The notes below the pieces were generated by a model that had not been told where the DNA came from, did not search any database, and saw only the letters and a program-made list of their open reading frames with translations. The position numbers were made by a program, and so were the translations under genes. Of a stretch of 64,000 nucleotides of DNA, positions 1,790 through 21,867 are shown in pieces (the first letter of the stretch is position 1; each line of letters begins with the position of its first letter). Source of the DNA: Argopecten irradians. Taxonomy: Eukaryota. The DNA lies in assembly GCF_041381155.1 (NCBI RefSeq), contig NC_091144.1, positions 38,732,437 through 38,796,436 of the forward strand, given 5' to 3'.

Positions 1790-3560
1790 GGCCTTTAAAT
1801 TATCACTGCATTAGTTTATATGTTTTCATGTATTAATATGTTTCTGTTACAGCTGGCCTTTGTCAATGCTGTTAGTGTATATGTTTTCATGTATTAATAT
1901 GTTTCTGTTACAGCTGGCCTTTGTCAATGCTGTTAGTGTATGTGTTTTCATGTATTAATATGTTTCTGTTACAGCTGGCCTTTGTCAATGCTGTTAGTGT
2001 ATATGTTTTCATGTATTAATATGTTTCTGTTACAGCTGGCCTTTGTCAATGCTGTTAGTGTATATGTTTTTCATGTATTAATATGTTTCTGTTACAGCTG
2101 GCCTTTGTCAATGCTGTTAGTGTATTGTTTTCATGTATTAATATGTTTCTGTTACAGCTGGCCTTTGTCAATGCTGTTAGTGTATATGTTTTCATGTATT
2201 AATATGTTTCTGTTACAGCTGGCCTTTGTCAATGCTGTTAGTGTATATGTTTTCATGTATTAATATGTTTCTGTTACAGCTGGCCTTTGTCAATGCTGTT
2301 AGTGTATATGTTTTCATGTATTAATATGTTTCTGTTACAGCTGGCCTTTGTCAATGCTGTTAGTGTATTGTTTTCATGTATTAATATGTTTCTGTTACAG
2401 CTGGCCTTTGTCAATGCTGTTAGTGTATATGTTTTCATGTATTAATATGTTTCTGTTACAGCTGGCCTTTTGTCAATGCTGTTAGTGTATGTGTTTTCAT
2501 GTATTAATATGTTTCTGTTACAGCTGGCCTTTGTCAATGCTGTTAGTGTATGTGTTTTCATGTATTAACATGTTTCTGTTACAGCTGGCCTTTGTCAATG
2601 CTGTTAGTGTATGTGTTTTCATGTATTAATATGTTTCTGTTACAGCTGGCCTTTGTCAATGCTGTTAGTGTATATGTTTTCATGTATTAATATGTTTCTG
2701 TTACAGCTGGCCTTTGTCAATGCTGTTAGTGTATATGTTTTCATGTATTAATATGTTTCTGTTACAGCTGGCCTTTGTCAATGCTGTTAGTGTATATGTT
2801 TTCATGTATTAATATGTTTCTGTTACAGCTGGCCTTTGTCAATGCTGTTAGTGTATATGTTTTCATGTATTAATATGTTTCTGTTACAGCTGGCCTTTGT
2901 CAATGCTGTTAGTGTATATGTTTTCATGTATTAATATGTTTCTGTTACAGCTGACCTTTGTCAATGCTGTTAGTGTATGTGTTTTCATGTATTAATATGT
3001 TTCTGTTACAGCTGGCCTTTGTCAATGCTGTTAGTGTATATGTTTTCATGTATTAATCTGTTTCTGTTACAGCTGGCCTTTGTCAATGCTGTTAGTGTAT
3101 ATGTTTTCATGTATTAATATGTTTCTGTTACAGCTGGCCTTTGTCAATGCTGTTAGTGTATATGTTTTCATGTATTAATATGTTTCTGTTACAGCTGGCC
3201 TTTGTCAATGCTGTTAGTGTATATGTTTACATGTATTAATATGTTTCTGTTACAGCTGGCCTTTGTCAATGCTGTTAGTGTATATGTTTTCATGTATTAA
3301 TATGTTTCTGTTACAGCTGGCCTTTGTCAATGCTGTTAGTGTATATGTTTTCATGTATTAATATGTTTCTGTTACAGCTGGCCTTTGTCAATGCTGTTAG
3401 TGTATGTGTTTTCATGTATTAATATGTTTCTGTTACAGCTGGCCTTTGTCAATGCTGTTAGTGTATGTGTTTTCATGTATTAATATGTTTCTGTTACAGC
3501 TGGCCTTTGTCAATGCTGTTAGTGTATATGTTTTCATGTATTAATATGTTTCTGTTACAG
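1790..3560. repeat. Minisatellite, 61-bp unit x~29. Each unit is the acceptor (ttctgttacag) plus the first ~25 nt of exon 3
   Basis: Period 61 measured between tgtcaatgct occurrences; the array ends exactly at the exon 3 acceptor. Confidence 0.95.
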
Positions 3561-3695
3561 CTGGCCTTTGTCAATGCGGTTAGTGGATCCCTCATTTGCC
3601 AACCAAACTTCAGGAACTCCAATGACTTGACTAGGAAATCCTTGAGTGTTTTGGCTGAAAGGGTCGTGACCTTTGATCCAGAGTTCATCCTTAAA
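3561..3695 (+). CDS. TEP1: TEP1-like exon 3 (start of TROVE: LAFVNAVSGSLICQPNF...DPEFILK)
   Basis: Acceptor ttctgttacag at 3550-3560, the last copy of the 61-bp array; phase 0; GTCAGT donor at 3696; joins in frame to VALYTRKEL of next exon. Confidence 0.7.
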
Positions 3696-4099
3696 GTCAG
3701 TATCAAAACACTAAGACTATCCTTTCTGGTTTTGTTCAAATAAATGACTGTGACCTTTATTCATGGTCGCGGAGGTCAAAATAAATGTTGATAAAAGAAC
3801 TTCTCACAAAGTAAAATACCTAGTAAGTTATTCAGAAATTGAGTCTGTAGTATGCTGGATGATGAACTTGAGCCGTCCATGAGCCGTCTGTAAACTTTTC
3901 ACTTAAACGAGTTGATCTCAATAATGATATGGCCAGGGTACTAATATTAGGCATTTAGCATGCTAGAAGAAAGGGATACTAAGTTTGTTCAAATGAATGA
4001 AAATTACTCAACTTGATGTCATTTTTTTGGAAGAAATAAGTATTTACCAACATCAATTTGTTTTAACACAATTTTAATTTTTGGCAGATGACCATTAAA

Positions 4100-4790
4100 G
4101 CCCTTAAATTTGGGCCTCTTGTTTTTAGGTCATCTGACTAGTCATAAGGTTCTTGTTAGATTTTGACCAAATTTGGCCAGAAACATTTGTAGGGGAAGGG
4201 GAACAGATTTTGTATAAATGGTGACTCTGACCCCCCTGAGGCCTGAGGGGCAGGGCCCAATAGGGGACATTTTGCTAATTCCTTAAAACGCTACTAGTCA
4301 AAAATTTCTCATTTGATTTTGACCAAGTTTGGCCAGAAACATCTTTGGGGGAATGTGAAGAGATTTTGTATAAATGATGGCTCTGATCCCTTTGGGGCAG
4401 GAAGGGCGGGGCCCAATAGGGGAAATAGAGGAAAAATCCTTCAAAATGCTACTAGTCATAAAGTTTCAAAAGAATTTCAACCAGATTTGGTCTAAAATGT
4501 CTTTGAGGGATAGGGAACAGATTTTGTATAAATGGTGACCCTGACCCCCCTGAGGGGCGAGGCCCAAAAGGGGAAATAGTGGAAAATTCCTTCAAAACAC
4601 TACTAGTCATAAAATTCTCTTTGGATTTTGACCAAATTTGGTCGGAAACATCTTTGGGGAATGTGAAGAAATTATGTATAAATGATGGCTATGACCTCTC
4701 CCTGAGCCAGGACGGGACCCCAAAAGGAGAAGATGAGGAATTTGATTTGAAAAAGCTAGTAATCATAAACACCTCATAAAATTTTGGCCA
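4100..4790. mobile_element. Family A: four tandem, partial 3'-module copies (~160-170 bp each)
   Basis: Repeated ttgaccaaatttggccagaaacat...ggggaaggggaacagattttgtataaatggtgac(t/c)ctgacccccctgagg...gggcccaataggggaaat. Confidence 0.6.
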
Positions 4791-5032
4791 AATTTTGGGA
4801 ATGAGAAAAGATTTTGTATCGTGACTTTGCCCAACATCGTTGTTTCGGTTTCTATTTTACCAAATATTTGTTTTCCCTCATGTTATAATTTGTTGAAATG
4901 AATTTTCAGATGACCGTTAAGGCCCATGGGCCTCATGTATATATAGTCTGAAGTATAATTTAATAAAGATATTTTAATACTTTTGGAAATTGATAAAATT
5001 TTAAAACTTTTATATTTAACACTGTTTTCTAG

Positions 5033-5194
5033 GTGGCCCTCTACACTCGGAAGGAACTCAATATCCGTACAACGGCAAACTTTCTGTTGGCAATGGCTGC
5101 CAATGTTCATGCCTGTCGACCCTTTCTCAAAAAGTATTACGTCAAGTCTATCGCCCTTCCATCTGACTGGATAGAGGTAGCAGAAATATACCAG
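5033..5194 (+). CDS. TEP1: TEP1-like exon 4, TROVE (VALYTRKELNIRTTANFLLAMAANVHACRPFLKKYYVKSIALPSDWIEVAEIYQ)
   Basis: Acceptor ttttctag 5025-5032, donor GTAGGG 5195; strong TROVE-like sequence. Confidence 0.85.
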
Positions 5195-5204
5195 GTAGGG
5201 ATTG

Positions 5205-7410
5205 TCAAACCTGTGTAATATGAACTAATTGTCAGCCTGTGTAATATGAACTAATTGTCAGCCTGTGTGATATGAACCAATTGTCAGTCTGTGAAATATG
5301 AACCAATTGTCAGCCTGTCTAATATGAACCAATTGTCAGCCTTTGTAATATAAACCAATTGTCAGCCTGTCTAATATGAACCAATTGTCAGCCTTTGTAA
5401 TAAACCAATTGTCAGCCTGTGTAATATGAACCAAATGTCAGCCTGTGTAATATGAACCAATTGTCAGTCTGTATAATATGAACCAATTGTCAGCCTGTGT
5501 AATATGAATAATTGTCAGCCTGTGTGATATGAACCAATTGTCAGCCTGTGTAATATGGACCAATTGTCAGCCTGTGTAATATGAACCAATTGTCAAACCT
5601 GTGTAATATGAACCAATTGTCAGCTTGTGTAATATGAACCAATTGTCAGCTTGTGTAATATGAACCCATTGTCAGCCTGTGTAATATGAACCAATTGTCA
5701 GCCTGTGTAATATGAACAAATTGTCAGCCTGTGTAATATGAACCAATTGTCAGCCTGTGTAATATGAACCAATTGTCAAGCCTGTGTAATTTGAACCAAT
5801 CGTCAGCTTGTGTAATATGAACCAATTGTCAGCCTGTGTAGTATGAACCAATTGTCAAGCCTGTGTAATATGAACCAATTGTCAGCTTGTGTAATATGAA
5901 CCAATTGTCAGCCTGTGTAATATGAACCAATTGTCAGCCTGTGTAATATGAACCAATTGTCAGCCTGTGTTATATGGACCAATTGTCAGCCTGTGTAATA
6001 TGAACCAATTGTCAAACCTGTGTAATATGAACCAATTGTCAGCCTGTGTAATATGAACTAATTGTCAGCTTGTGTAATATGAACCAATTGTCAGCCTGTG
6101 TAATATGAACCAATTGTCAGCCTGTGTAATATGAACCAATTGTCGGCCCGTGCAATATGAACCAATTGTCAGCCCATGTAATATGAACCAATTGTCAAAC
6201 TTGTGTAATATGAACCAATTGTCAGCCTGTAATATGAACCAATTGTCAGCCTGTCTTATATGAACCAATTTTCAGCCTGTGTAATATGAACCAATTGTCA
6301 GCCTGTGTAATATGAACCAATTGTCAGCCCATGTAATATGAACCAATTGTCAGCTTGTATAATATGAACCAATTGTCAAACCTGTGTAATATGAACCAAT
6401 TGTCAGCCTGTGTAATATGAACCAATTGTCAAACCTGTGTAATATGAACCAATTGTCAGCCTTTGTAATATGAACCAATTGTCAGCCTGTGTAATATGAA
6501 CCAATTGTCAGTCTATGTAATATGAACCAATTGTCAGCTTGTGTAATATGAACCAATTGTCAGCCTGTGTAATATGAACCAATTGTCAGCCTGTGTAATA
6601 TGAACCAATTGTCAGCCTGTGTAATATGAACCAATTGTCAGCCTGTGTAATATGAACCAATTGTCAAACCTGTGTAATATGAACCAATTGTCAGCCTGTG
6701 TAATATGAACCAATTGTCAGCTTGTGTAATATGAACCAATTGTCAGCCTGTGTAATATGAACCAATTGTCGGCCCGTGCAATATGAACCAATTGTCAGCC
6801 CATGTAATATGAACCAATTGTCAACTTGTGTAATATGAACCAATTGTCAGCCTGTAATATGAACCAATTGTCAGCCTGTCTTATATGAACCAATTTTCAG
6901 CCTGTGTAATATGAACCAATTGTCAGCCTGTGTAATATGAACCAATTGTCAGCCCATGTAATATGAACCAATTGTCAGCTTGTATAATATGAACCAATTG
7001 TCAAACCTGTGTAATATGAACCAATTGTCAGCCTGTGTAATATGAACCAATTGTCAGCCTGTGTAATATGAACCAATTGTCAGCCTGTGTAATATGAACC
7101 AATTGTCAGCCTGTGTAATATGAACCAATTGTCAGCCTGTGTAATATGAACCAATTGTCAGCCTGTGTAATATGAACCAATTGTCAGCCTGTGTAATATG
7201 AACCAATTGTCAGCCTGTGTAATATGAACCAATTGTCAGCCTGTGTAATATGAACCAATTGTCAGCCTGTGTAATATGAACTAATTGTCAGCCTGTGTAA
7301 TATGAACTAATTGTCAGCCTGTGAAATATGAACTAATTGTCAGCCTGTGTAATATGAAGTAATTGTCAGCCTGTGTAATATGAACCAATTGTCAGCCTGT
7401 GTAATATGAA
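5205..7410. repeat. Minisatellite, 26-bp unit x~85 (aattgtcagcctgtgtaatatgaacc), starting 11 nt after the exon 4 donor
   Basis: Period 26; the unit matches the first intron bases attgtcaaacctgtgtaatatgaac. Confidence 0.95.
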
Positions 7411-7613
7411 ATAATGCATGTCAATCTAATGACACCCACATTTCAAATAACAGAATAACTCAATCATTTCACTTTGACTAATGTGACAATTGATTTCATA
7501 TGGAGGATAGGATAAGAAGAACACAATTTTCTGTAAGATCTTCTCTAAAACAGATTGGTTGTTTGACTCGACTTTTTTTAAAGTGTTTTAGAAATCTTTT
7601 TGCATTCTTGCAG

Positions 7614-7710
7614 GCTTTCCATGACAAGACCATTAGCCAGGGAGCTATACCAGCTGCCCTAAGGAAAGTCATGATCACAAAATTTCCTGATTTTGACAAA
7701 TACCAGCTTG
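7614..7710 (+). CDS. TEP1: TEP1-like exon 5, TROVE (AFHDKTISQGAIPAALRKVMITKFPDFDKYQL)
   Basis: Acceptor ttgcattcttgcag; donor GTAGGT at 7711; phase 0 in, phase 1 out. Confidence 0.8.
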
Positions 7711-8221
7711 GTAGGTCCTGTAATGTTACTTTCTTACAAATATCACATTGTTCTCGTTGTAATGATTTCAAAAGTAAGTAAATAAATGGCTGGGGTTTAT
7801 GATCATTGTTACAATCCACTGTCAGGGTTTCACTAACATTTTTAGCCACTACTCAGTTTTCCTGCTGTTAGTAGTTTCTATGTTAATGTTGTTTTAGGAC
7901 ATCAGTTATGGTTATGTTAAAACCTTATATTAAAAACTGTCTTAAGCAATTCTGAAAATCAAAATAAAAACTTATTAACATAAAAATTATGAAGGTCATA
8001 TTTGAAGAAGAAAACCGCCCAAATATTGTTGAGTGAAATGAAAGTAACAATTGAGTTATAATTGTCAGTTACATGCATCTGAAATCATATTCTATATAGA
8101 GAAATATTTTTTGCAAACAGATGCTCATTTAAGAACAAGAGTTGTGAAGCTTTCAACTTGTAGTGATTTCGGTACTTTGATTTTTCCTGTTTGTCAACGA
8201 TTGCTATTGATTTTGTTTCAG

Positions 8222-8496
8222 CAAAATACAACAAAGACAGCTCAAAGAAGAAAAAGAACAAGAAGACAAAGGAGGACACCACTAGCCCTGCCACAAGAGG
8301 TCAATTTAGGGGTAGAGGTCGAGGTGGGGTCAGAGGTGGTGTCAGAGGCCGGGGTAGAGGTCGCGGAGGTTATGACACAACGTTGACACCTGAACCAGTG
8401 AAAGACTCCAAGAAGAAGAAGAAGAAAAGTTTATTTGACTCTGATTCTTCAGACTCCTCGGATACGGACTCAGAGGACGAAATGTTGAAGAGACAG
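8222..8496 (+). CDS. TEP1: TEP1-like exon 6; RG/RGG-rich plus poly-Lys and acidic Ser-rich low-complexity insert
   Basis: Acceptor ttttgtttcag; encodes (A)KYNKDSSKKKKNKK...RGQFRGRGRGGVRGGVRGRGRGRGG...KKKKKKSLFDSDSSDSSDTDSEDEMLKRQ; donor GTGAGG at 8497; phases match neighbours. Confidence 0.75.
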
Positions 8497-9730
8497 GTGA
8501 GGAACCCATATTTGAAATAAATACTATTAGTTACACAGTTTGTTAGTGATCTAATAAAGAAACATATTGAGTCTAAAATAAACTTGTATCGTGCATTATT
8601 TTTCCGTATAAGGTCACTAATAAACTGTAACAAATTTATCCCGATGAAGACCCTTTCAATGAAGTAACTGCAAAATGCATTATGCATGGAAACTAAACCA
8701 AAACAACTCAAAACTTAATCAATTTTCATCTCATTGAATGACTCCAATGCGTTGTCATGGTCCATTTCTATTAAATAATCCTAAATAAGTATTGCCAATA
8801 TTTGTTTGCCTTGAAAGTGGTCACCAGAGCTGTTATTCAAACGTTTTGTCTTCATCTCTTTGAGTGCCATCATCACGAAGCATTACTTGACCGCCATCTT
8901 GTTGCGAATGGCATTAGGGGCAAAGAACGATAACTTTATCGCCAAACCTGATACAATTTCTACTAACCTGATACGACTATATCTTGGATATCACGTGACG
9001 TCTTTTTAACCAATAGGAGTACAAGATACTTGTCTGAGGCGGGATAAAGCCATGTATCGTATACAGTCGTGTTTTTTATACAGTATTCCTGCTACACTTT
9101 GATGGTCTCCACCATATTGATCTATGTAATGATTGTCTCCCCTTGTATGTAGGTATCTATTGTGATACTGTGTTTGTCAGTCGCCGTGAGGTTTTATCTC
9201 TTGAGTCAGTTTCACATGATGTTACAGTCACAAACATCAAAATTAATTATTATCCTCAAGAGCAGATAACTCTTTAATAAGCAAATACCAGATTTATATG
9301 CTATTACATACCACTATCTTAAGAGTTTTTATATCGCATACGATGATAGTTCGCCCAGACAATACTATGGTGTTCCTTTTCCGTCGGCAGCGGCGGCGTT
9401 GTCATTAACATTTCACTTTAAAGTTTTGCGTTTAGCTCCATTCCTCCAAAAGTTTAAGTCCAGAGGCTGTGAAATTTAATGATACTTTAAACTTTACTTA
9501 GCTTTTTTTATTTTCTTCTCCTCAGATGTTTTTTAATATTCCATTATATTTATGTAATAAATCAACAATGCGGTACCGGCGATTCTTGTAATTACGTGTA
9601 ATTCTTGTCTGTTTTTATCTGTTGACCATTATATGAAGATAAGTCAGAGCCCCTGAGACTTTACCCAAACTTTAAAGGTTATTTGATATGATAGTAGCTC
9701 TGTTGACTTGTAACCTTTTCCTATTCACAG

Positions 9731-9864
9731 ATCAGTGATGTTATTTATGATGAAAAGGAGAGTGAGTTAGAACTTTCCCAGGCAAAGTTTTCACTGAAGC
9801 AACTCATCCGGAAACTTCACATTGTGGAACCGGTGGAGCATGTTATGTGTCTCGTTGGGAAAAA
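9731..9864 (+). CDS. TEP1: TEP1-like exon 7 (ISDVIYDEKESELELSQAKFSLKQLIRKLHIVEPVEHVMCLVGKK)
   Basis: Acceptor ttcctattcacag; donor GTAGGT at 9865; phase 0 in, phase 2 out. Confidence 0.8.
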
Positions 9865-10084
9865 GTAGGTATACCCTGGATGTCTCTTTTGGAGTTGGAA
9901 ATAGTTGAAGTCTTATCACTAGAGGATTTTGACTTTTGATGGGTATAACATGCAATACTAATTATGTTACTAATGTGGAAAAATAATTACAAATGGGGTT
10001 TTTCAACCAAGGTTAAACCTATCCTCAATAATGTTTACCTACAATATGTCCTGAAAGCGGGGGATGGAAATTCCACGAATTTGC

Positions 10085-12990
10085 TTGTTTATGATAGGAT
10101 GAAATCTTTATGATTTATGCTCTGTGTTTATGATAGGATGAAATCTTTATGATTTATGCTCTGTGTTTATGATAGGATGAAATATTTATGATTTATGCTC
10201 TGTGTTTATGATAGGATGAAATCTTTATGATTTATGCTCTGTGTTTATGATAGGATGAAATCTTTATGATTTATGCTCTGTGTTTATGATAGGATGAAAT
10301 CTTTATGATTTATGCTCTGTGTTTATGATAGGATGAAATCTTTATGATTTATGCTCTGTTTATGATAGGATGAAATCTTTATGATTTATGCTCTGTGTTT
10401 ATGATAGGATGAAATCTTTATGATTTATACTCTGTGTATATGATAGGATGATATCTTTATGATTTATGCTCTGTTTATGATAGGATGATATCTTTATGAT
10501 TAATGCTCTGTGTTTATGATAGGATGATATCTGCTCTGTGTTTATGATAGGATGATATCTTTATGATTTATACTCTGTGTTTATGATAGGATGAAATCTT
10601 TATGATTTATGCTCTGTGTTTATGATAGGATGAAATCTTTATGATTTATGCTCTGTGTTTATGATAGGATGAAATCTTTATGATTTATGCTCTGTGTTTA
10701 TGATAGGATGAAATCTTTATGATTTATGCTCTGTGTTTATGATAGGATGAAATCTTTATGATTTATGCTGTGTGTTTATGATAGGATGAAATCTTTATGA
10801 TTTATGCTCTGTGTTTATGATAGGATGAAATCTTTATGATTTATGCTCTGTGTTTATGATAGGATGAAATCTTTATGATTAATGCTCTGTGTTTATGATA
10901 GGATGATATCTTTATGATTTATGCTCTGTGTTTATGATAGGATGAAATCTTTATGATTTATGCTCTGTGTTTATGATAGGATGAAATCTTTATGATTTAT
11001 GCTCTGTGTTTATGATAGGATGAAATCTTTATGATTTATGCTCTGTGTTTATGATAGGATGAAATCTTTATGATTTATGCTCTGTGTTTATGATGAGATG
11101 AAATCTTTATGATTTATGCTCTGTGTTTATGGTAGGAAGAAATCTTTATGATTTATACTCTGTGTTTATGATGAGATGAAATCTTTATGATTTATGCTGT
11201 GTGTTTATGATGAGATGAAGTCTTTATGATTTATGATGTGTTTATGGTAGGAAGATATCTTTATGATTTATGCTCTGTTTATGATAGGATGATATCTTTA
11301 TGATTTATGCTCTGTGTATATGATAGGATGAAATCTTTATGATTTATGCTCTGTGTTTATGATAGGATGAAATCTTTATGATTTATGCTCTGTGTTTATG
11401 ATAGGATGAAATCTTTATGATTTATGCTCTGATTATGATAGGATGAAATCTTTATGATTTATTCACTGTTTATGATAGGATGAAATCTTTATGATTTATT
11501 CACTGTGTTTATGATAGGATGAAATCTTTATGATAGGATGAAATATTTATGATTTATGCTCTGTGTTTATGATAGGATGAAATATTTACGATTTATGCTC
11601 TGTTTATGATAGGATGATATCTGTATGATTTATGCTCTGTGTTTATGATAGGATGAAATCTTTATGATTTATGCTCTGTGTTTACTTTAGGATGAAATCT
11701 TTATGATGTATGCTCTGTGTTTATGATAGGATGAAATCTTTATGATTTATGCTGTGTGTTTATGATAGGATGAAATCTTTATGATTTATGCTCTGTGTAT
11801 ATGACAGGATGAAGTCTTTATGATTTATGCTGTGTGTTTATGATAGGATGAAATCTTTATTATTTATGCTTGTGTATATCTTTATGATTTATGCTCTGTG
11901 TTTATGATGAGATGAAATCTTTATGATTTATGCTCTGTGTTTATGATAGGATGAAATCTTTTATGATTTATGCTCTGTGTTTATGATAGGATGAAATCTT
12001 TATGATTTATGCTCTGTGTTTATGATAGGATGAAATCTTTATGATTTATGCTGTGTGTTTATGATAGGATGAAATCTTTATGATTTATGCTGTGTGTTTA
12101 TGATAGGATGAAATCTTTATGATAGGATGAAATATTTATGATTTATGCTCTGTGTTTATGATAGGATGAAATATTTACGATTTATGCTCTGTTTATGATA
12201 GGATGATATCTGTATGATTTATGCTCTGTGTATATGACAGGATGAAATCTTTATGATTTATGCTGTGTTTACTTTAGGATGAAATCTTTATGATGTATGC
12301 TCTGTGTTTATGATAGGATGAAATCTTTATGATTTATGCTGTGTGTTTATGATAGGATGAAATCTTTATGATTTATGCTCTGTGTTTATGATAGGATGAA
12401 ATCTTTATGATTTATGCTCTGTGTTTATGATAGGATGAAATCTTTATGATTTATGCTCTGTGTTTATGATGAGATGAAATCTTTATGATTTATGCTCTGT
12501 GTTTATGGTAGGATGAAATCTTTATGATTTATGCTGTGTGTTTATGATAGGATGAAATCTTTATGATTTATGCTCTGTGTTTATGATAGGATGAAATCTT
12601 TATGATTTATGCTCTGTGTTTATGATAGGATGAAATCTTTATGATTTATGCTCTGTGTTTACTTTAGGATGAAGCTCTGTTTATGATAGGATGAAATCTT
12701 TATGATTTATGCTCTGTGTTTATGATAGGATGAAATCTTTATGATTTATGCTCTGTGTTTATGATAGGATGAAATCTTTATGATTTATGCTCTGTGTTTA
12801 TGGTAGGAAGAAATCTTTATGATTTATACTTTGTGTTTATGATAGGATGAAATCTTTATGATTTATGCTCTGTGTTTATGATAGGATGAAATCTTTATGA
12901 TTTATGCTCTGTGTTTATGATAGGATGAAATCTTTATGATTTATGCTCTGTTTATGATAGGATGAAATCTTTATGATTTATGCTCTGTGT
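10085..12990. repeat. Minisatellite, 40-bp unit x~72 (ctgtgtttatgataggatgaaatctttatgatttatgct). Each unit carries an acceptor copy, tgtttatgatag|g
   Basis: Period 40; the last unit provides the exon 8 acceptor. Confidence 0.95.
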
Positions 12991-12999
12991 TTATGATAG

Positions 13000-13157
13000 G
13001 TACCCTGACACCATGGAACTTTTCTATCAGAGCCGTCTGCCTGGAACATTTGAAGAGGAGCGGGCAGGCAAAAGGATGAAGCTGCCTATTCCAGAGACTT
13101 GGGAAACACAGGTGTCGCTGAAGGGCAATAAGGCCAAAACGTGGGAGGATCTCATAG
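13000..13157 (+). CDS. TEP1: TEP1-like exon 8 (YPDTMELFYQSRLPGTFEEERAGKRMKLPIPETWETQVSLKGNKAKTWEDLI)
   Basis: Acceptor tgtttatgatag, the last copy of the 40-bp array; donor GTAAGT 13158. Confidence 0.8.
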
Positions 13158-13639
13158 GTAAGTTTGATTTGTTGATCAGGGCCTTACAATGTAGGCATAG
13201 CTGTTTACAAAATGGCTGACAGGCAGCCATCTTTAATTTTGACAATTGAAGTTTGTTATTGCTATTTCTGAAAAAAATTAATGAAAGTATTTCTATATTT
13301 CATATGTAGGTTCCTCTTTGTCCCTAGAGCTTTTTCAATTCTCAATAACTTTCAGCTTATCAGTTTAAGATACAAAACATTAACATGGAAGGTTCAGACA
13401 CATACTTAGTTGGGCACCCACACATTTACATCAAGCACAAGTATGTGAAAGATCTGGATCAACATGATCAATTTAATAACAGCCATCTTAGATTTTGACA
13501 TTTAGAGATTTTGAGATTAAAATATTGCATAAGAAAATAGTGGTCTGTGGCTACGTGTAGACTTCATATGAAGTTTCACAATGTGTATCAATATTTTCAA
13601 AGGAAAAGGGAAAGCAGAAGAAGGTCACTGAAGGTCATT

Positions 13640-14140
13640 GACTGACATAGATCATATAAAAGTGGGCCCTAAGATCCCTCTGGGATCTCTTGTTAGAGTA
13701 AGATATATCTCAGTCAGTTCCATTCAATGGTGGGCGCTAAGATCCCTCTGAGATCTCTTGTCAGAGTAAGATATATCTCAGTCAGTTCCATTCAATGGTG
13801 GGCGCTAAGATCCCTCTGGGATCTCTTGTTAGAGTAAGATATATCTCAGTCAGTTCCATTCAATGGTGGGCGCTAAGATCCCTCTGGGATCTCTTGTTTG
13901 AGTAAGATATATCTCAGTCAGTTCCATTCAATGGTGGGCGCTAAGATCCCTCTGGGATCTCTTGTTTGAGTAAGATATATCTCAGTCAGTTCCATTCAAT
14001 GGTGGGCGCTAAGATCCCTCTGGGATCTCTTGTTTGAGTAAGATATATCTCAGTCAGTTCCATTCAATGGTGGGCGCTAAGATCCCTCTGAGATCTCTTG
14101 TCAGAGTAAGATATCATATTCCAGTCAGTTCTAATCAATG
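13640..14140. repeat. Tandem repeat, ~61-67-bp unit x~8, ending ~45 nt before the exon 9 acceptor
   Basis: Repeated gtgggcgctaagatccctctgggatctcttgttagagtaagatatatctcagtcagttccattcaat. Confidence 0.9.
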
Positions 14141-14184
14141 GTTGACAATCTGTGTGAGATCTCTTGTTTTGTTTTTGATATCAG

Positions 14185-14294
14185 ACCACAATAAGCTGCC
14201 CTTCATGGCCATGTTGAGGAATCTTCGGAACCTGATCAAAGCGGGGATATCAGAGAAACACCACACCAACATCCTACATAGACTAACAAATGAG
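14185..14294 (+). CDS. TEP1: TEP1-like exon 9, TROVE (DHNKLPFMAMLRNLRNLIKAGISEKHHTNILHRLTNE)
   Basis: Acceptor tttttgatatcag; donor GTTTGT 14295; phases consistent. Confidence 0.8.
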
Positions 14295-14439
14295 GTTTGT
14301 ATTCTTATTTTGATTAGTCAAAAGATGACCGCCAGGCCATCATCTTGGATTTTGATAATTGATTTTGTTACTGCTATTTCTAGTACTGTGGGATCATTCT
14401 GAAATTACATATTTTATGTAGTTTGTAATTTGCGTCTAA

Positions 14440-15110
14440 TGTAGTTTTCTTTAGCTCTCTTTTCGAAAAGAGGTGGGGAAAGCTTATGGAATCAGAGTGG
14501 CATTGGAAATCACAAAGATAAAGTTTTGATGCAAGTGTTGAAATCCTGTTTTCTGTAGCAACTGAAATTGATTTCCACATTGAAGAAAGAAATGGCTTTA
14601 TTTTTTGACTTTGTAGAGACTCAAGATGGTGCATGTTGTGAAATGTGATTTATTATCTGTAGCAAGTGACAGATTTCTACATCAATATAGGATTATGTGT
14701 TGTGTATTGACAATTATTTTAAGGGAGAAAACACTGTATTTTGAGAATTTCAATAGGCCCAAAGAGCTGAAATTACCGGTTAAAGTTGTGGTGCAAGTGT
14801 TGTAATACTGTTATCTCTAGTACCTGATATGGATTTCTGCCCAATGTTGAATTATAATTTTTTTTTGTATGGATAAATATTTAAAGGAGGAAAAATCGGA
14901 ATTTTGAGAATTTTAAGATGCCCCAAGGTGCCAGTTTGTACTTTGCTTTCCCTACCTTCTTAACATTGATTTCTGTCTGAATATCGAGACTTAGAATTAC
15001 ATAGTAGATTGTTAGGGATTTATTGGCAATCTTTTTGGGGGTAAAACACAGGATTTTAAAGAATTTAAAAATTCCCAATGGACAACAGTGTACTTGCATG
15101 ATCAAAAGAT
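14440..15110. repeat. Diverged ~190-bp tandem repeats x3-4 (intron 9)
   Basis: Recurrent blocks ...gagaattt(c/t)aa(t/g)a(g/t)gcccaa(a/g)g...tgcaagtgttg...atttc. Confidence 0.5.
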
Positions 15111-15176
15111 ATTTAAAAGCTGTCCGTGGCTAGTTTGTTGCTCTTTATTTAAACATCTCGAAATTTCATTTTTTAG

Positions 15177-15267
15177 AGACAAGTCGTAAACAGCAAGCAG
15201 TTTCCATTCAGATTTTTCTCTGCGTATGAGGTTCTGGGAAATCTAGAAAAGGATTATGAAACAAGTC
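15177..15267 (+). CDS. TEP1: TEP1-like exon 10, TROVE (RQVVNSKQFPFRFFSAYEVLGNLEKDYETS)
   Basis: Acceptor tttcattttttag; donor GTAAGT 15268. Confidence 0.75.
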
Positions 15268-15450
15268 GTAAGTAATTTAAAATTATCGCATGTACATAAG
15301 GCTCAGTCAATTTTGCTGAAACACATTCACAAAAGTGACTGTTAAACAATAACTCAATTTTATCTCTAATATATATCTTATTGAGTTTAAATTGCATGAT
15401 TTTGTTTAACACCTCTTTCAGTACTTACAGTACTTTGATTTTTTTGGCAG

Positions 15451-15604
15451 AGGCAAACATAGTTGCCGCCGCTGAAGAAGCAGCTGGTATGACTGACGCC
15501 CCTGTTACACGTGGAAGGGGCCGTGGGGCTAGAGGCGGCCGAGGGGGTAAGAAGACCAATCCTGAAATGTGGTGGCTCGACAAGAAGAAGAAGAAAGGAC
15601 CACA
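15451..15604 (+). CDS. TEP1: TEP1-like exon 11; second RG/RGG-rich plus poly-Lys insert (ANIVAAAEEAAGMTDAPVTRGRGRGARGGRGGKKTNPEMWWLDKKKKKGPQ)
   Basis: Acceptor tttttttggcag; donor GTATGT 15605; an internal GTAAGA at 15547 is a possible alternative donor. The long form is preferred because it parallels exon 6. Confidence 0.6.
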
Positions 15605-15932
15605 GTATGTATATGATGTTCATTAAAGTTTAAATGTAATATAAATAATGTTTCAATGTACATTTTGTGATTTTATAACAACATGTAAAACATGTTAAAT
15701 GAAGTTATTGTATAAGTCACAATTAATTGATTTCAATGCTTGATTCAGAAGTGGATACAGAAAAGTCTCTAAATTTTTACATCTGATTTCATGCTTCCTA
15801 AGAGAAAATCTGTTTAACTGTAAGGCAATCATCAATTTAGTTCATACCTGTTCAAATGTCTTCAGTAAAAAATCATTAGAATTAAATGTACACCATTGGA
15901 ATGGAGGTGAATGTTTTGTTTGAACTTCCCAG

Positions 15933-16113
15933 GGAGACTCCATTTGACTTGCAACTGATTACAAGGTACAAAAAAGCCCTGGATAAATCAGTGAAGATCG
16001 CCACAACGTACAACGTCCAGCCGATACGAGGGCGAACCATCGTCCTCTGTGACATTGGACCAAGCATGGAAGTCAACTGTACAGCAGCCAAGGGTCTCGG
16101 CAAGCCAAGACAG
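15933..16113 (+). CDS. TEP1: TEP1-like exon 12, TROVE vWA-like (ETPFDLQLITRYKKALDKSVKIATTYNVQPIRGRTIVLCDIGPSMEVNCTAAKGLGKPRQ)
   Basis: Acceptor gaacttcccag; donor GTACAT 16114. Confidence 0.85.
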
Positions 16114-16689
16114 GTACATACACACTAGAACTCTCTGTACCGACTATAGTTGACAGAATTTTACTTTCCCTCTTCCCCATTGTCGACTATAGTTGACACT
16201 CAATATTGGTGTTCTTTATTTCTTATTATATTCAAATTTTCAATACAGTGATATATGAAAAGTATTTTAAGTTGCAAATAAACTTTCTTGTTGCTAAATA
16301 AATATTCATTTTTAATATGCGCGATGTATACTGTTTTAATGGCAGAGGTACAAGATAGATCAAACAGAAGTTATCATCATAAACATGGCGGTTTGTTGCA
16401 CCTTTCGCTCCAGATTGCAATATCAAGATAAAATCTTGATTCAGGTTATAAATGATTTATAGGATTAATTCTATTAGTAAGTAAGTTTAAATGATTGCAA
16501 TAACCTTAGCATGTTGAAATTAATTGAATAAGCACACAACAACTAGACATTTTATCCGACACTTTTTCAAAAGCTTCCGGGGGTGAGACTAATAATTATA
16601 TCTGGTACGGAATCCAGTAAGAATACAGTTCGGAAACAGTTAACTGTAACAATATGAAGGACCAAAGGCTTATGCGATATCATGGCGTC

Positions 16690-17010
16690 AGTCGTCCATC
16701 AGTCAGTCAACAATCGACTTTTTCTTCATAACCGCTTTGTGGAATTTAACAAAATTTGGTAGCATCCTTAGGGATGATGACTGAAAGTTGTACAAATGGT
16801 GGGACTGACCATCTATGGGCCTGAGAGGCAGGGCCAAAAGGAGTCAATATGGCTGTTTTCAAGTAAATGATTTTTCTCTAAAACTAAGCATTGAATAGCT
16901 TTTATATTGTATGGTAGCATCATTTTATGGTGGGAATTGAAAATTGTACAAATGGTGGGGCTGACCCTTCGGAGGCCTGAGGGGCAGGCAAAAAGGGTGA
17001 ATATAGCTAT
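16690..17010. mobile_element. Family A: two tandem partial copies
   Basis: ...aaatttggtagcatc...gaaagttgtacaaatggtgggactgacc...gggcctgagaggcagggccaaaagg, x2. Confidence 0.55.
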
Positions 17011-17039
17011 TTCAATATATAAACATATCTATATGTTTG

Positions 17040-17914
17040 TAGGATATTACATTTGTTGACTCATTGTAGATGATTGACTCGTTGTAGATGAAGGAGGTTG
17101 TAGTATATTACATTTGTTAACTAATTGTAGATGAAGAATTTTGTAGTATATTACATTTATTGACTCGTTGTAGATGAAGGAGGTTGTAGTATATTACATT
17201 TATTGACTCGTTGTAGATGAAGGAGTTTGTAGTATATTACATTTGTTGACTCGTTGTAGATGAAGGAGGTTGTAGTATATTACATTTATTGACTCGTTGT
17301 AGATGAAGGAGGTGTTGCAGTATATTACATTTGTTGACTCGTTGTAGATGAAGGAGGTTACAGTATATTACATTTGTTAACTAATTGTAGATGAAGGATT
17401 TTGTAGGATATTACATTTATTGACTCGTTGTAGATGAGGGAAGTTGTAGTATATTACATTTGTTGACTCGTTGTAGATGAAGGAGTTTGTAGTATATTAC
17501 ATTTGTTGACTTGTTGTAGATGAAGGAGTTTGTAGTATATTACATTTATTGACTCGTTGTAGATGAAGGAGTTTGTAGTATATTACATTTATTGACTCGT
17601 TGTAGATGAAGGAGTTTGTAGTATATTACATTTATTGACTCGTTGTAGATGAAGGAGTTTGTAGTATTACATTTATTTATTTTTATTGACTCGTTGTAGA
17701 TGAAGGAGTTTGTAGTATATTACATTTATTGACTCGTTGTAGATGAAGGAGTTTGTAGTATATTACATTTATTGACTCGTTGTAGATGAAGGAGTTTGTT
17801 GTATGTTACATTTGTTGACTCGTTGTAGATGAAGGAGTTTGTAGTATATTACATTTATTGACTCGTTGTAGATGAAGGAGTTTGTAGTATATTACATTTA
17901 TTGACTCGTTGTAG
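17040..17914. repeat. Minisatellite, 43-bp unit x~20 (gtagtatattacatttgttgactcgttgtagatgaaggaggtt). Each unit is an acceptor (cgttgtag) plus the start of exon 13 (atgaaggaggtt)
   Basis: Period 43; abuts the exon 13 acceptor. Confidence 0.95.
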
Positions 17915-18067
17915 ATGAAGGAGGTTGCAGTTCTACTCGGCCTGATGTGTAAATACTCGTGTGAGGAATGTGACCTGATTGCCTTTACTCAGCAGACTTA
18001 CTTCAATGTTCACCTCAAACCTGGCACGATTCTCGAGAATATGGACATTGTTTTAAACCCAGACCTT
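17915..18067 (+). CDS. TEP1: TEP1-like exon 13 (MKEVAVLLGLMCKYSCEECDLIAFTQQTYFNVHLKPGTILENMDIVLNPDL)
   Basis: Acceptor cgttgtag, the last copy of the 43-bp array; donor GTAAGT 18068. Confidence 0.8.
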
Positions 18068-18225
18068 GTAAGTTTGTCTTGGTTATCTTATTTACTCTCT
18101 TATGTCTGTAGTATGCACTATGATTACCAGATAGTAGGTTTGTGATTCAGGCCCATTGGGCCTGTGTTCTAATCTATTTCCTATTCCCAGCAATAATAAC
18201 AGAACTTGTGTGTTTTGTTTGACAG

Positions 18226-18315
18226 CTATCCACCAGTGTATCGAAGAATTCTCAACCGATGCCTTTTATGTTACCACATCAAATCCTTTCTGATGCTCTA
18301 AGGGACCGAGTACAG
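18226..18315 (+). CDS. TEP1: TEP1-like exon 14 (LSTSVSKNSQPMPFMLPHQILSDALRDRVQ)
   Basis: Acceptor ttttgtttgacag; donor GTGAGT 18316. Confidence 0.8.
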
Positions 18316-18394
18316 GTGAGTAGCCTAGATCTTTTTAGTCATTTGAATGAAAAGTTTACGCATGGTACATGCGGTCTTGCATAACGATGAATGA

Positions 18395-18960
18395 AGCATG
18401 ATGACAATAGGTCATCTGACCCTTCCAAAGTCCAAGGATACTCATATTGGGCCTGTATCATGCTGTGATTAAGGGCTATCAAGTTTGTTCAAATAAATGA
18501 CCTTGACCTTCATTTAAAGTCACAGGGATCAAATAAGCTAAAGTCTTTAACCACTTCTTGTCAACTTCTAAGAGACTTAGAGACTTTTATATTTGGTCTG
18601 TATCATGCTTGGATTAATAGACTAAAATGTTAAAACAACCAAGTTTTTTTCATATGAATGACCTTAACCTTCATTTAGGGTCATAGTGGTTAAAAAGATT
18701 GAAATCTGTAAACAACTTCTTGTCAATAACTAATAGCCCTAGAGACCTGATATTGGGCCTGTAGCATGCTGGGATGAAGGGCTATCAAGTTTGTTCAAAT
18801 GAATGACCGTAACATTCATTTAAGGTCACAGGGGTTAAATAGTTTAAAGTTTTTAAACAAAATTCTGTCAATAACTTAAAATGATGCCTAAAATACTGAT
18901 ATTGAGTCTGTAGCATACTAGAATGAAGGGCTTATATGTTTATTCAAGCGAAAGAACTTT
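18395..18960. repeat. Interspersed ~160-bp satellite-like family B: ~3.5 tandem units (..agagacctgatattgggcctgtagcatgctgggatgaagggctatcaagtttgttcaaatgaatgaccttgaccttcatttaaggtcacagggg(t/a)tcaaata(g/a)gctaaa..)
   Basis: Homologous arrays at 27130-27595 and 32550-32830, plus a fragment at 3905-3995. Confidence 0.75.
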
Positions 18961-19299
18961 ACCTACTTTAAGGTCAAAATTTCAAAAATATATATCGGAA
19001 ATTTACTACTTCAACTGATGAGAGAGTTCCTTGTGTTGCCTTTACTATGACTGTGTTGTTTTGTGCCGATAGTTAGATGACTGTTAACACCCACGGGCCT
19101 TTCATACAAATCTTGATATTGAATAGATTTAATTCATCCCTGATATTTCTAATTGCCTATTATTGGTGTAGGTGTTTTAGATTGCTAAGTAAAGCTGATT
19201 CCTGGGGTAGTAGCTTGTGGCTACCTAAGTTCACAACAGCTTTGATACCTGGGTATTTCAAATTTATGTTTGAATATCATAAAACTTCATGAGTGTATT

Positions 19300-19745
19300 T
19301 CCTTGATCATCTGATAGTCTGATCTCAGGACATAATGAAATGGATGTACTTGTATATTTACATGACGATCTGTTGTAAGGCAGAATGTTCTTAGGACATA
19401 ATGAATTGGATGTACTTGTATATCTATATGACGATCTGTGGTAAGGGAGAAAATTCCTAGGACATAATGAAATGGACATACTTGACATGTATATTTACAT
19501 GACGATCTGTTGTAAGGCAGAAAATTCTTAGGACATAATGAAATGGACATACTTGTATATTTACATAACGATCTGTTGTAAGGCAGAAATTTCCTAGGAC
19601 ATAATGAAATGGACATACTTGTATATTTACATGACGATCTGTTGTAAGGCAGAAATTTCCTAGGACATAATGAAATGGACATACTTGTATATTTACATGA
19701 CGATCTGGTTGTAAGGCAGAAAATTCTAAGGACATAATGAATTGA
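19300..19745. repeat. Tandem repeat, ~65-bp unit x~7 (ggacataatgaaatggacatacttgtatatttacatgacgatctgttgtaaggcagaaaattcttag)
   Basis: Visual periodicity; 50 nt upstream of the exon 15 acceptor. Confidence 0.85.
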
Positions 19746-19797
19746 ATATACTTGTATATTGGAAGGTGGAATATACTTATATATTGATGTTTAATAG

Positions 19798-19940
19798 GTT
19801 GATAACTTGATCTTCCTGAGCGGTGGTGACAATGTACCTACCCAGCAACAGTATCTATCAACTTTTCTGAAAAAATACAGAGAGATTGTCAACCCCAATC
19901 TCCTGTATGTCAACATTTCCTTCGCAGGCAAGAGTTGTGG
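19798..19940 (+). CDS. TEP1: TEP1-like exon 15 (VDNLIFLSGGDNVPTQQQYLSTFLKKYREIVNPNLLYVNISFAGKSCG)
   Basis: Acceptor atgtttaatag; donor GTAAGT 19941. Confidence 0.8.
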
Positions 19941-20648
19941 GTAAGTGTTAGAAATGATTTGGAACTTTTATCTATAGTCAATTCTACCGACAGCCTGTGG
20001 TATTTTGACCCACATGGTAAAATGACCCAAGGTCAGCATGCTAGTACCATCATACATACTTGATGATGATCATAAGAAAATCTGTCAGCATGTTTCAAAT
20101 TAAAAGAGAAGTACAAGGAAATACAGGTACTGTGTCTGAATATACTATTAGGTAAATGTTTATTTGAGTAAGTTGTCTGAAAAAGTAATAAAAACATTGA
20201 TGTCACTATTTTTTGATTTCTTTAGGTTATAATGAATTTTTCTTTGTTTTCATACCAAATCTGGCTTTATGACCGTCCTACACTTTTTTTTGCATACCCC
20301 TACGGTATGAAAAAAACATCTGAGAATGGGAAAAAACCCTGACGTTATCGTGACGTCACAATAGAGACATTGACGTGCGTATTGATTAAGAAAAAGAATC
20401 CCTTGAAAAATCACTAGAATGGTCCATTTAATCATACTTTATTTTATCAAATAGATTATGAAATTAATATATGAAAAAATGAAAAAAATTGTGACATCAA
20501 TGAAATAAATTTCGTTTGTGAGAATCCGCTAAAAAGAATCGGGCAATCAGAAAGTTTAATTTATTATGAAAGTAAAGAAAAAACTATTTTACTTAAACAA
20601 CAATGAGAGAAGTAAAGATGAAACTTTATTTTTTATTATTTTTCGCAG

Positions 20649-20720
20649 ATTTTCCGAGAGTATCATTCCCGAGCATGACAACGATATTTACATCTCCGGC
20701 TACAGTGACCAGATTCTGAG
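20649..20720 (+). CDS. TEP1: TEP1-like exon 16 (FSESIIPEHDNDIYISGYSDQILR)
   Basis: Acceptor ttatttttcgcag; donor GTAAGA 20721. Confidence 0.8.
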
Positions 20721-21392
20721 GTAAGACAAACTAATCGGCCATATACATAAGAAAAACTAACATCATCTTCGTAACCAGCATTCAGATGAAATTTGGTTCC
20801 ACAAAAAATAAGTATGTTTACATTATAAAAAAAAAACATTTGAAGTTTTCTTTTTAAATTGGCCATATATATTAGAATTTATCACATAACTAGTCCATCA
20901 TGCCAAGTCATACGGCCATGTCCTAAATATCATAAGATACATGTGTAATAACACTATTGTGATGTCACTGGTAGTTTTGGCGTCATAATCTATATGTGAT
21001 GTCGCTTGATTGTCTCAGTAGACGGAAACGTCACATCTGAGCCAGATTTCTTGTTTTATAAGAGACGAAATCTTAAGTTTTACTTATATCTCTATTATTA
21101 AAAGTTATTAATAAATTAGAAACTTACACTCGTAACTATGTGATATGAAATTTATCAAACTCGTTAAATAATCTGATATGCCACTCGTCTAAAGGCTCGC
21201 GGGATATAAAATTGAACTTGTTTGATAACTTTCATATCACATAGCCACTCATGTAAGATTGTCTATTTATTGGCCAGGTGTTGTCATGTAGGCCCAGTCC
21301 TGTACTGTCCAGTCCTTTGATGTTAATGTGATGGAGACAGGTATTTCTAGCTTCTAAAGGAAATTTCTTATCTTTCATTTAATCTTCTGTAG

Positions 21393-21554
21393 GTTCATAG
21401 CAGAGAGAGGAGAAGGGGGACAACTGCGTCATGTAGAAAAGATAGATGAAGCTTTTGACCTTCGACCTATGCCTGCAACATCAGCAGACCGAAGAAGCAA
21501 ACAAAAACTGGAGAAGCCAGAAAAACCTCTTCCTATAGTGTCTAATACTCGCAG
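21393..21554 (+). CDS. TEP1: TEP1-like exon 17, linker (FIAERGEGGQLRHVEKIDEAFDLRPMPATSADRRSKQKLEKPEKPLPIVSNTR)
   Basis: Acceptor atcttctgtag; donor GTAAAG 21555. Confidence 0.8.
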
Positions 21555-21669
21555 GTAAAGATTGGGGAAATACTATGTAGATAGAGCTGGCTCTGTTTAG
21601 TGTCTTAAATACCTGACTGTTATACAAAATTCTTTTGTATTCTGTTGATGATTTTTTTATTTTTTTCAG

Positions 21670-21846: not shown

Positions 21847-21867
21847 GTAAAACTACTGTTTTTTCGT

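Follow-up and report, generated by a model that had tools for sequence, protein, structure and literature searches.

What are the two segments rich in arginine-glycine (RG) and lysine that interrupt the TROVE region of a TEP1 gene in the scallop Argopecten irradians, and did molluscs acquire them anew? The gene lies in a stretch of 64,000 nucleotides (contig NC_091144.1, positions 38,732,437 to 38,796,436 of the forward strand; hereafter the window, from whose first letter all coordinates are counted), and a first-pass annotation had described the segments as paralogous-looking inserts, each an RG/RGG box with a poly-Lys run, that may be lineage-specific additions. Our analysis points to a different history, in which the loops that carry the segments belong to the whole protein family and the RG/RGG boxes on them are a conserved trait of molluscs. 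As to their role, we give about an even chance to the reading that the two segments are disordered cationic arms on the TROVE ring which add auxiliary electrostatic contacts to RNA, as their position, composition and conservation would suggest. The finding is incremental, since it concerns a well-known gene family and a well-known class of motif; what is new is the presence of mollusc-conserved RG/RGG boxes on universal basic loops. A full-text literature search for TEP1 or TROVE together with RGG did not find a description of these boxes, and the TROVE loops are not discussed in two of the 2026 preprints on TEP1 as an NADase; the underlying sequences can be found in public databases.

Judging from its match to another scallop protein described below, the gene of the window is a scallop (Pectinidae) TEP1 ortholog of about 50 exons, a size that agrees with the earlier numbering of the two segments as exons 6 and 11; positions 8222 and 15604, between which they had been placed, are exact exon borders. 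Along the plus strand, the two loops and their flanks are built as follows:

8222-8496, plus strand: exon 6, the dedicated "loop 1" exon, 275 nt, with AG/GT borders and an open frame
8233-8274, plus strand: K-rich stretch KDSSKKKKNKKTKE, net charge +6
8293-8370, plus strand: RG/RGG box 1, TRGQFRGRGRGGVRGGVRGRGRGRGG, 26 amino acids with nine RG, tri-RG plus di-RGG, net charge +9
8410-8427, plus strand: poly-Lys run KKKKKK, encoded by five AAG and one AAA
8428-8481, plus strand: acidic Ser-rich tract SLFDSDSSDSSDTDSEDE, net charge -8, with four S/T-x-x-D/E (CK2-type) sites
9731-9864, plus strand: exon 7, the acidic return helix ISDVIYDEKESELELSQAK and then the conserved FSLKQLIRKLHIVEP
15177-15267, plus strand: exon 10, the conserved QFPFRFFSAYEVL helix running into loop 2
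15451-15604, plus strand: exon 11, the dedicated "loop 2" exon, 154 nt, with AG/GT borders
15507-15548, plus strand: RG/RGG box 2, TRGRGRGARGGRGG, 14 amino acids with five RG, tri-RG plus di-RGG, followed by KK
15564-15596, plus strand: EMWWLDKKKKK, the "WW plus basic" motif conserved in molluscs, which follows box 2
15933-16113, plus strand: exon 12, ETPFD...LITRYKKALD..., where the chain returns to the core and the vWA domain starts

Exon 6 opens with a conserved (A)KYN and consists for the remainder of variable loop only, positions 8224-8496 translating as KYNKDSSKKKKNKKTKEDTTSPATRGQFRGRGRGGVRGGVRGRGRGRGGYDTTLTPEPVKDSKKKKKKSLFDSDSSDSSDTDSEDEMLKRQ. In exon 11, positions 15453-15602 translate as ANIVAAAEEAAGMTDAPVTRGRGRGARGGRGGKKTNPEMWWLDKKKKKGP, and the whole exon reads (Q)ANIVAAAEEAAGMTDAPVTRGRGRGARGGRGGKKTNPEMWWLDKKKKKGP(Q). 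These translations reproduce verbatim the RG/RGG box, the poly-Lys run and the acidic Ser-rich tail that had been reported for exon 6, as well as the RG/RGG box and poly-Lys of exon 11. The charges of loop 1 follow one another in blocks: +6 in the K helix, +9 in the RG box, +6 in the run of six lysines and -8 in the acidic Ser tract, after which comes the acidic return helix.

The RG density of both boxes cannot be chance. From the composition of the remaining protein, 0.05 RG dipeptides would be expected in box 1 and 0.03 in box 2, against nine and five observed, and the protein outside the boxes holds two in about 880 amino acids. In the definitions reportedly given by Thandapani et al. in 2013, a tri-RG motif is RG(X0-4)RG(X0-4)RG, and di- and tri-RGG patterns are distinguished as well; the motif scan that the first-pass annotation had suggested, run with regular expressions, classes both boxes as tri-RG plus di-RGG and neither as tri-RGG at 0-4 spacing. 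The supposed paralogy of the two boxes was rejected. Their likeness is compositional only, the DNA 6- to 12-mers that they share show no excess over synonymous-codon shuffles (P = 0.97-1.0), and the RG boxes of the two loops differ in their phylogenetic distribution.

How old are the loops themselves? Loop 1 was taken as the segment after YQLAKYN and loop 2 as the segment after FPFRFFSAY, and both were extracted from about 300 TEP1/p80 homologs by anchoring on a hidden Markov model (HMM) of the query columns, which recovered loop 1 from 241 sequences and loop 2 from 238. Both loops are present in every homolog examined, among them those of vertebrates, arthropods, nematodes, flatworms, echinoderms, a sponge, amoebae and ciliates. 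Loop 1 measures 10-240 amino acids (median 45), with a median Lys plus Arg content of 29%, and loop 2 measures 17-163 amino acids (median 61), with a median of 21%. No part of loop 1 is more widely conserved than the K-rich stretch, whose family consensus is KYNxExxxKxxxxKxK. Furthermore, in the genomic DNA of Saccostrea, Solemya and Patella each loop lies on its own exon with the same borders, the loop 1 exon following the pattern (A)KYNKxSS...RQ and the loop 2 exon ending in ...K|ET.(F/Y)D. Since the loops are universal and lie on dedicated exons, the alignments indicate that they are ancient features and not new insertions of the mollusc lineage, and that molluscs changed the flavour of pre-existing basic loops without adding loops. 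The idea of lineage-specific additions therefore stands for the RG content, which is lineage-restricted, and falls for the loops as inserts, which are present in all of the roughly 240 homologs; the comparison with orthologs that had been proposed along with it finds the loops universal and the RG boxes not.

The upper end of the loop 1 range belongs to rotifer-type homologs (P0207 from Brachionus plicatilis, P0005, P0010, P0012, P0210 and P0212), in which the loop reaches 220-240 amino acids. Two of the four rotifer-type loops scanned against Pfam match Gal-bind_lectin above its cut-off (28.5 bits vs 22.1), and a galectin-like domain apparently sits there, at the site of mollusc RG box 1.

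The RG content of the loops was then compared among the eight molluscs of the set, with the following numbers of RG dipeptides:

Scallop of the window: 9 in loop 1, 5 in loop 2
Patella (gastropod): 8 in loop 1, 6 in loop 2
Saccostrea (oyster): 9 in loop 1, 6 in loop 2
Mya arenaria: 9 in loop 1, 0 in loop 2
Solemya: 2 in loop 1, 9 in loop 2
Mizuhopecten (RefSeq model): 0 in loop 1, 7 in loop 2
Elysia: 1 in loop 1, 1 in loop 2
Octopus (a gene model that looks defective): 0 in loop 1, 0 in loop 2

Six of the eight molluscs have a tri-RG motif in one or other loop; among 40 named metazoans that are not molluscs, the bdelloid rotifer Adineta is the only one to have it (Fisher P = 1.5e-5, uncorrected for phylogeny). 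Two flanking elements accompany the boxes. The WW-basic motif is common to Patella and four bivalves (scallop, Mizuhopecten, Saccostrea and Solemya), its counterparts being DNWWIEKKNK in the oyster, ENWWLDRKKK in Solemya, EMWWLDKKKN in Mizuhopecten and FEWWLKKKAK in Patella. The acidic Ser tract has a wider distribution than the RG box, occurring in all five bivalves, in Patella, in Elysia and in some invertebrate-like TEP1s that have no RG box. Since Patella and Saccostrea carry RG boxes in both loops and have the WW-basic motif in common, both boxes are, on this comparison, older than the gastropod-bivalve split. Each of the five bivalves has at least seven RG in one loop or the other, the loop differing between species; this suggests selection for having an RG arm over selection for its exact site, and among bivalves the box appears to move between loops.

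Vertebrate TEP1s carry an RG box at neither loop and at most two RG per loop (0-2 dipeptides), as the first-pass annotation had supposed. Like the scallop protein, they have a variable basic loop following YQLAKYN and another following FPFRF(F/L)SAY. Unlike those of molluscs, however, these loops are rich in K, R and P without RG repeats (e.g., Physeter PRTHRAKRRPHRPPRPP... and Oryzias TRKHRCKHSTKKRKGKK...). Neither the acidic Ser tract nor the WW-basic motif is present in them.

Over the whole family, tri-RG motifs occur in seven of 241 loop 1 and 24 of 238 loop 2 sequences. Outside animals they are found in loop 1 of Flamella and Phalansterium (Amoebozoa), and in loop 2 of Gocevia (Amoebozoa), of Apiculatamorpha and of many ciliate-like or other protist p80s, the ciliate-like ones being metagenomic. 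These protist proteins have the same motif on the same loops (e.g., P0128, ...ARGGRGAPRGGRGAVRGGRGRGG...RKKKVIIP), but they differ from the scallop in carrying a KK-x-IIPxxMP flank in place of the WW-basic motif and in having no acidic Ser tract. The protist boxes are scattered among RG-less relatives, which implies independent origins or repeated loss, and on the distribution seen here the RG boxes would have arisen independently in amoebozoans, in ciliate-like protists and in a rotifer.

Is the RG-coding sequence always part of the protein? The RefSeq protein of Mizuhopecten (P0199, residues 443-447) is without the RG core of loop 1, about 41 amino acids corresponding to window positions 8281-8409, and keeps both flanks; its loop 2 box is longer than that of our scallop (seven RG vs five). 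A genomic deletion and a difference in gene model or splicing are equally possible explanations of this gap. It could be taken, together with a feature of exon 6, as a sign that the box is an artefact or non-constitutive, i.e., that the RG-coding stretch is spliced out, for instance as an exitron, and the protein usually has no RG. Exon 6 contains an in-frame GT...AG pair (8300-8452, 153 nt) whose donor, GAG|GTCAAT, matches the consensus at 6/9 positions and whose acceptor has a 75% pyrimidine tract with CAG, both sites falling in the range of quality shown by the real introns of the gene; its use as an intron would cut out box 1, the run of six lysines and part of the acidic tract. We nevertheless hold this explanation to be very improbable. 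The frame is open through both boxes, and the RG repeats stay in frame in Saccostrea, Solemya, Mya and Patella, as independent gene models and genomic exons of these animals show; excision of 8300-8452 would delete a segment different from the Mizuhopecten gap; and the candidate introns around box 2 have poor acceptors, with a pyrimidine fraction of at most 0.45. In addition, the exons measure 275 and 154 nt, neither a multiple of three, so that skipping exon 6 or exon 11 as a whole shifts the frame.

The structural setting of the boxes was read from the AlphaFold2 model of the oyster ortholog (P0123), which is 68% identical to the scallop protein and has both boxes. Its TROVE/vWA core is predicted with a per-residue confidence (predicted local distance difference test, pLDDT) above 90, and Foldseek matches it to the Ro60/Rsr/TROVE structures 9kop, 9l5y, 1yvp, 2nvo, 2i91 and 9nep with a probability of 1.0 each and template-modelling scores, normalised to the target, of up to 0.69. 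In loop 1, the model has a confidently predicted helix for the K-rich stretch (residues 432-451, pLDDT ~90), then coil for the RG box and the acidic tract (pLDDT 40-44, ~41 in the box) and lastly a Glu-rich helix that leads back to the core. In loop 2, a disordered RG box (47-53) lies between a long helix (652-684, pLDDT 93) and the "WWIEKKNKQKEE" helix (713-724, 59-68). Both RG boxes are predicted to be intrinsically disordered.

To place the loops on the Ro60 ring, the TEP1 family profile was aligned by hhalign (probability 98.8%) to human Ro60, whose sequence was checked against chain 9nen_A. TEP1 FSLKQLIRKLH pairs with Ro60 WSHKDLLRLSH187, which puts loop 1 directly N-terminal to the helix that holds the Y-RNA-contact histidine. 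The aligned histidine is encoded at 9818-9820 in exon 7 and is a near-invariant residue of the family (H253). In Ro60, H187 touches Y RNA directly on the outer surface of the ring (PMC4030889), and Y RNA binding is lost in the H187S mutant (PMC11277228); a position beside this residue makes an RNA-binding role of loop 1 plausible. Loop 2 pairs with a short basic Gly-rich loop of Ro60, KTGHGLRGKLKW, at the TROVE-vWA junction. Ro60 (TROVE2) and the bacterial and phage Rsr/Ro proteins resemble the scallop protein in the HEAT-repeat ring with a vWA fold and, in Ro60, in the conserved KY...LLR.xH helix with its contact histidine and the basic Gly-rich GHGLRGKLKW at the position of loop 2. They differ in that the loop 1 site of Ro60 is a few residues long and its loop 2 site ~17, with RG box, poly-K and acidic tract absent there.

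On this framework, the RG/RGG box and poly-Lys arms would project from two surface loops of a Ro60-like TROVE ring, the loop 1 arm leaving the ring just before the helix with the equivalent of H187, the residue that in Ro60 contacts Y RNA on the outer face, and the loop 2 arm leaving it at the TROVE-to-vWA junction. In molluscs, the basic character of both loops would be supplied largely by RG/RGG repeats. The arms would add contacts of low specificity, raising the affinity or the on-rate for a small structured RNA held by the ring, for which vault RNA, telomerase RNA or another RNA are candidates, and the acidic Ser-rich tract could fold back on the basic arm as an intramolecular competitor, a brake tunable by phosphorylation. 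We infer RNA contact, arginine methylation and phospho-regulation of the arms in this way.

What is known of related proteins agrees with such a role. In mammals TEP1 is a partner of the vault particle and of vault or telomerase RNA (PMC7916137). The TROVE region of TEP1 binds vault and telomerase RNAs with limited specificity (PMC7916137; bioRxiv 10.64898/2026.09.21.753143). RGG/RG regions coupled to folded domains give high-affinity, degenerate RNA binding in FUS, FMRP and hnRNP U, and in FUS they dominate affinity with degenerate specificity (PMC5570134). The scallop boxes resemble these glycine-arginine-rich (GAR) regions, including those of nucleolin and fibrillarin, in being disordered Arg-Gly repeats with tri-RG and di-RGG patterns beside a folded RNA-binding module. 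They differ in being short (14-26 amino acids), in sitting on surface loops within a domain where GAR regions are terminal or inter-domain tails, and in their attachment to a TROVE ring in place of RRM, KH or zinc-finger domains. The distribution of the boxes supports the reading of the segments as arms: the RG boxes are kept across conchiferan molluscs, with both loops occupied in Patella and Saccostrea, and the same RG composition recurs at the same two loops in distant eukaryotes.

Several points weigh against it. The Mizuhopecten model, which comes from the closest relative found, is without the whole RG core of loop 1, Mya is without box 2, and Elysia and Octopus are nearly RG-free; with boxes missing in some molluscs, no single box is indispensable, as neutral turnover would also give. 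Disorder was judged on the oyster ortholog and not on the scallop protein itself. The placement of the loop 1 gap against Ro60 166-179 (K170/R174) is ambiguous by a few residues in the hhalign alignment, and our PDB searches found no TEP1-RNA structure. RNA binding, methylation and function of the scallop arms are deduced from position and composition.

The strongest rival, which we consider unlikely, is neutral expansion of low-complexity sequence: slippage would build and remove RG, K and acidic-Ser runs in permissive exposed loops, with at most basicity under selection. It would account for the wide range of loop lengths given above, for the absence of the box 1 core from a Mizuhopecten model that is otherwise 83% identical, for RG counts that vary widely among bivalves and individual boxes that some species dispense with, and for a loop 1 that tolerates a whole galectin-like domain in rotifer-type homologs. 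The DNA of box 1 also shows mildly raised internal repetition (P ~0.04) and encodes its arginines with five different codons, a state that some slippage in the past could have left, but one that does not fit a fresh microsatellite. Box 2, however, is free of internal repeats at the DNA level and uses four different codons for its five arginines, unlike the product of recent slippage; mixed codons with few or no repeats point to maintenance at the protein level. Neutral drift is likewise hard to reconcile with boxes that persist at both loops from Patella to bivalves, across a deep split and with conserved WW-basic and acidic Ser flanks, with the retention of at least one box in five of five bivalves, and with the independent recurrence of the composition at both loops in distant eukaryotes.

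Two further explanations were considered. In the first, which we regard as quite improbable, the poly-Lys runs, by themselves or together with the GAR-like RG boxes, are localisation signals that target a fraction of TEP1 to the nucleus or nucleolus for the assembly of telomerase or of small ribonucleoproteins, and the acidic Ser tract modulates this targeting under the control of CK2, much as in nucleolin and proteins of the Nopp140 type. Nucleolar proteins are similar in combining K-rich, RGG and acidic-Ser blocks, and the K-rich stretch with which loop 1 starts is conserved throughout the family. Loop 1 has six matches to K[KR]x[KR]; loop 2 has two, along with a bipartite-like KK-x9-KKKKK. 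Such regular-expression matches are of low specificity, though, and the oyster does not conserve the bipartite-like pattern. Moreover, the oyster model shows the K-rich stretch as a confident helix joined to the domain and not as a free linear motif, and vertebrate TEP1 is described as a mainly cytoplasmic component of vaults (PMC7916137).

In the second, to which we would give still less credit, the segments form an interaction or condensate module, in which methylated RG motifs recruit Tudor proteins (SMN-type), drive multivalent interactions or phase separation, or anchor TEP1 to the inner vault surface. RG/RGG motifs are classical substrates of protein arginine methyltransferases (PRMTs) and ligands of Tudor domains, and the opposite charge blocks of loop 1 (+6, +9, +6, -8) follow a pattern associated with self-association. 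The boxes are nonetheless short beside typical phase-separating RGG domains, and their position next to the RNA-contact helix favours a role in RNA binding.

The arm reading can be carried one step further. According to the 2026 preprints, TEP1 belongs to the STAND proteins and has an active TIR-like NADase (DUF4062), and its TROVE/vWA head is perhaps regulated by RNA. As a speculation that we rate as a long shot, the mollusc RG arms could be a lineage-specific retuning of such an RNA sensor, broadening or shifting the range of RNAs that it recognises (G-rich, structured or foreign) and thereby gating NADase signalling; as part of that same speculation, the "floating" box of bivalves would come from selection that keeps one arm or more on every molecule. 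If this were true, mollusc TEP1 would be a natural experiment on how disordered arms set the ligand range of an RNA-sensing STAND protein. More generally, the RNA-binding head of TEP1 has no solved structure, and two universal basic loops flanking a Ro60-type RNA-contact helix are concrete targets for the study of how TEP1 engages RNA. The loops also illustrate clearly how low-complexity sequence can evolve convergently at structurally defined positions.

The identity of the gene rests on several concordant matches. The window reads as eukaryotic DNA, with about 36% GC and introns of the GT-AG type. Eighteen consecutive exons (3561-23204), spliced from the window with AG/GT borders throughout, form one open frame of 924 amino acids, over which an exhaustive HMMER search finds 83% identity to the "telomerase protein component 1-like" protein of Mizuhopecten yessoensis (XP_021378535.1, 2701 amino acids). 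This protein is collinear with window positions 955-63594, up to its last residue. The TROVE domain is N-terminal (Pfam PF05731, E = 2.6e-102, 343.7 bits vs a cut-off of 23, residues 4-472 of the partial model), and its envelope includes both RG segments. A vWA domain follows directly on its C-terminal side, query residues 445-666 pairing by hhalign with the Ro60 vWA at 346-538, including the DxSxS-like DIGPSM/DVSASM; the oyster model has an alpha/beta fold there, with vWA matches in Foldseek.

Upstream of the candidate ATPase lies a DUF4062 domain, a putative TIR-like NADase (Pfam PF13271, 62.4 bits vs a cut-off of 24.7); the region, at 21670-23204, is well conserved. The TEP1 family profile matches the crystal structure of the human TEP1 TIR (DUF4062) domain, 11gz_A, with E = 1e-74, consistent with the 2026 preprints on TEP1 as an active NADase, and matches the bacterial KpSwz DUF4062 (10wc_A) weakly. 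The STAND/NACHT region has a Walker A motif, GKPGTGKS, and an NWD1-type winged helix (HTH_NWD1, 28.8 bits vs a cut-off of 27). AAA_16, AAA_22 and nSTAND1 scored under their cut-offs with a query that was a rough concatenation of exons; along this stretch the gene aligns collinearly with Mizuhopecten TEP1, at 76-90% identity. The C-terminal WD40 repeats match two propeller models of the TEP1 type (Beta-prop_TEP1_2nd, 167.9 bits vs a cut-off of 89; Beta-prop_TEP1_C, 144.3 bits vs 32). The order TROVE, vWA, DUF4062, candidate STAND/NACHT ATPase and WD40 propellers, the last recognised by TEP1-specific models, is that of vertebrate TEP1. The TROVE and TEP1 propeller matches agree with the earlier assignment of the gene to TEP1 and of the boxes to its TROVE module. 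Membership in the Ro60 (TROVE2) family was rejected: the fold is shared, but the gene runs on into NADase-like, candidate ATPase and WD40 parts, whereas Ro60 consists of TROVE and vWA only (~540 amino acids). PDB searches with the protein and with the family profile aligned, from vertebrate Ro60, only the vWA part and found no structure of a TEP1 TROVE domain, the one solved TEP1 structure found being the TIR domain 11gz. A scan of positions 7500-16500 against Rfam, on both strands, gave no match.

Some minor features of the gene remain to be described. Exon 2 (955-1746) encodes an N-terminal region with a long Ser/Leu/Thr-rich stretch of low complexity (…LLSTSSLRSATPLTTNNS…). Such N-terminal stretches also occur in the TEP1s of Patella, oyster, Solemya, Adineta and Branchiostoma, and the equivalent residues 1-275 of the oyster model are wholly disordered (pLDDT ~30). 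In Patella vulgata (OW026350.2), TEP1 is annotated as two gene models (10001-15910 and 16277-25910), the break between them falling within the loop 1 exon, just past the acidic tract; tblastn finds the exons collinear across it.

Finally, at least 15 introns of the scallop gene hold minisatellite arrays of 0.3-3.5 kb, with periods of 21-68 bp and up to 85 copies. Arrays were located at 1811-3585, 5201-7410, 10086-13000, 13662-14142, 17073-17931, 24637-25556, 34715-36036, 40166-41179, 41719-45232, 46411-48843, 50788-52256, 54130-55779 and 58561-60509. Several of them abut an exon, with a repeat unit that spans the splice acceptor and the first bases of the exon. The 61-bp unit of the array at 1811-3585 ends in ...TGTTACAG|CTGGCCTTTGTCAATGC, at 10086-13000 it is the final copy of a 39-bp unit that provides the acceptor of the exon at 13000, and the 43-bp unit at 17073-17931 holds ...TTGTAG|ATGAAGGAG. 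Since the repeat units carry acceptor sequence, dozens of decoy acceptors lie upstream of the real one.

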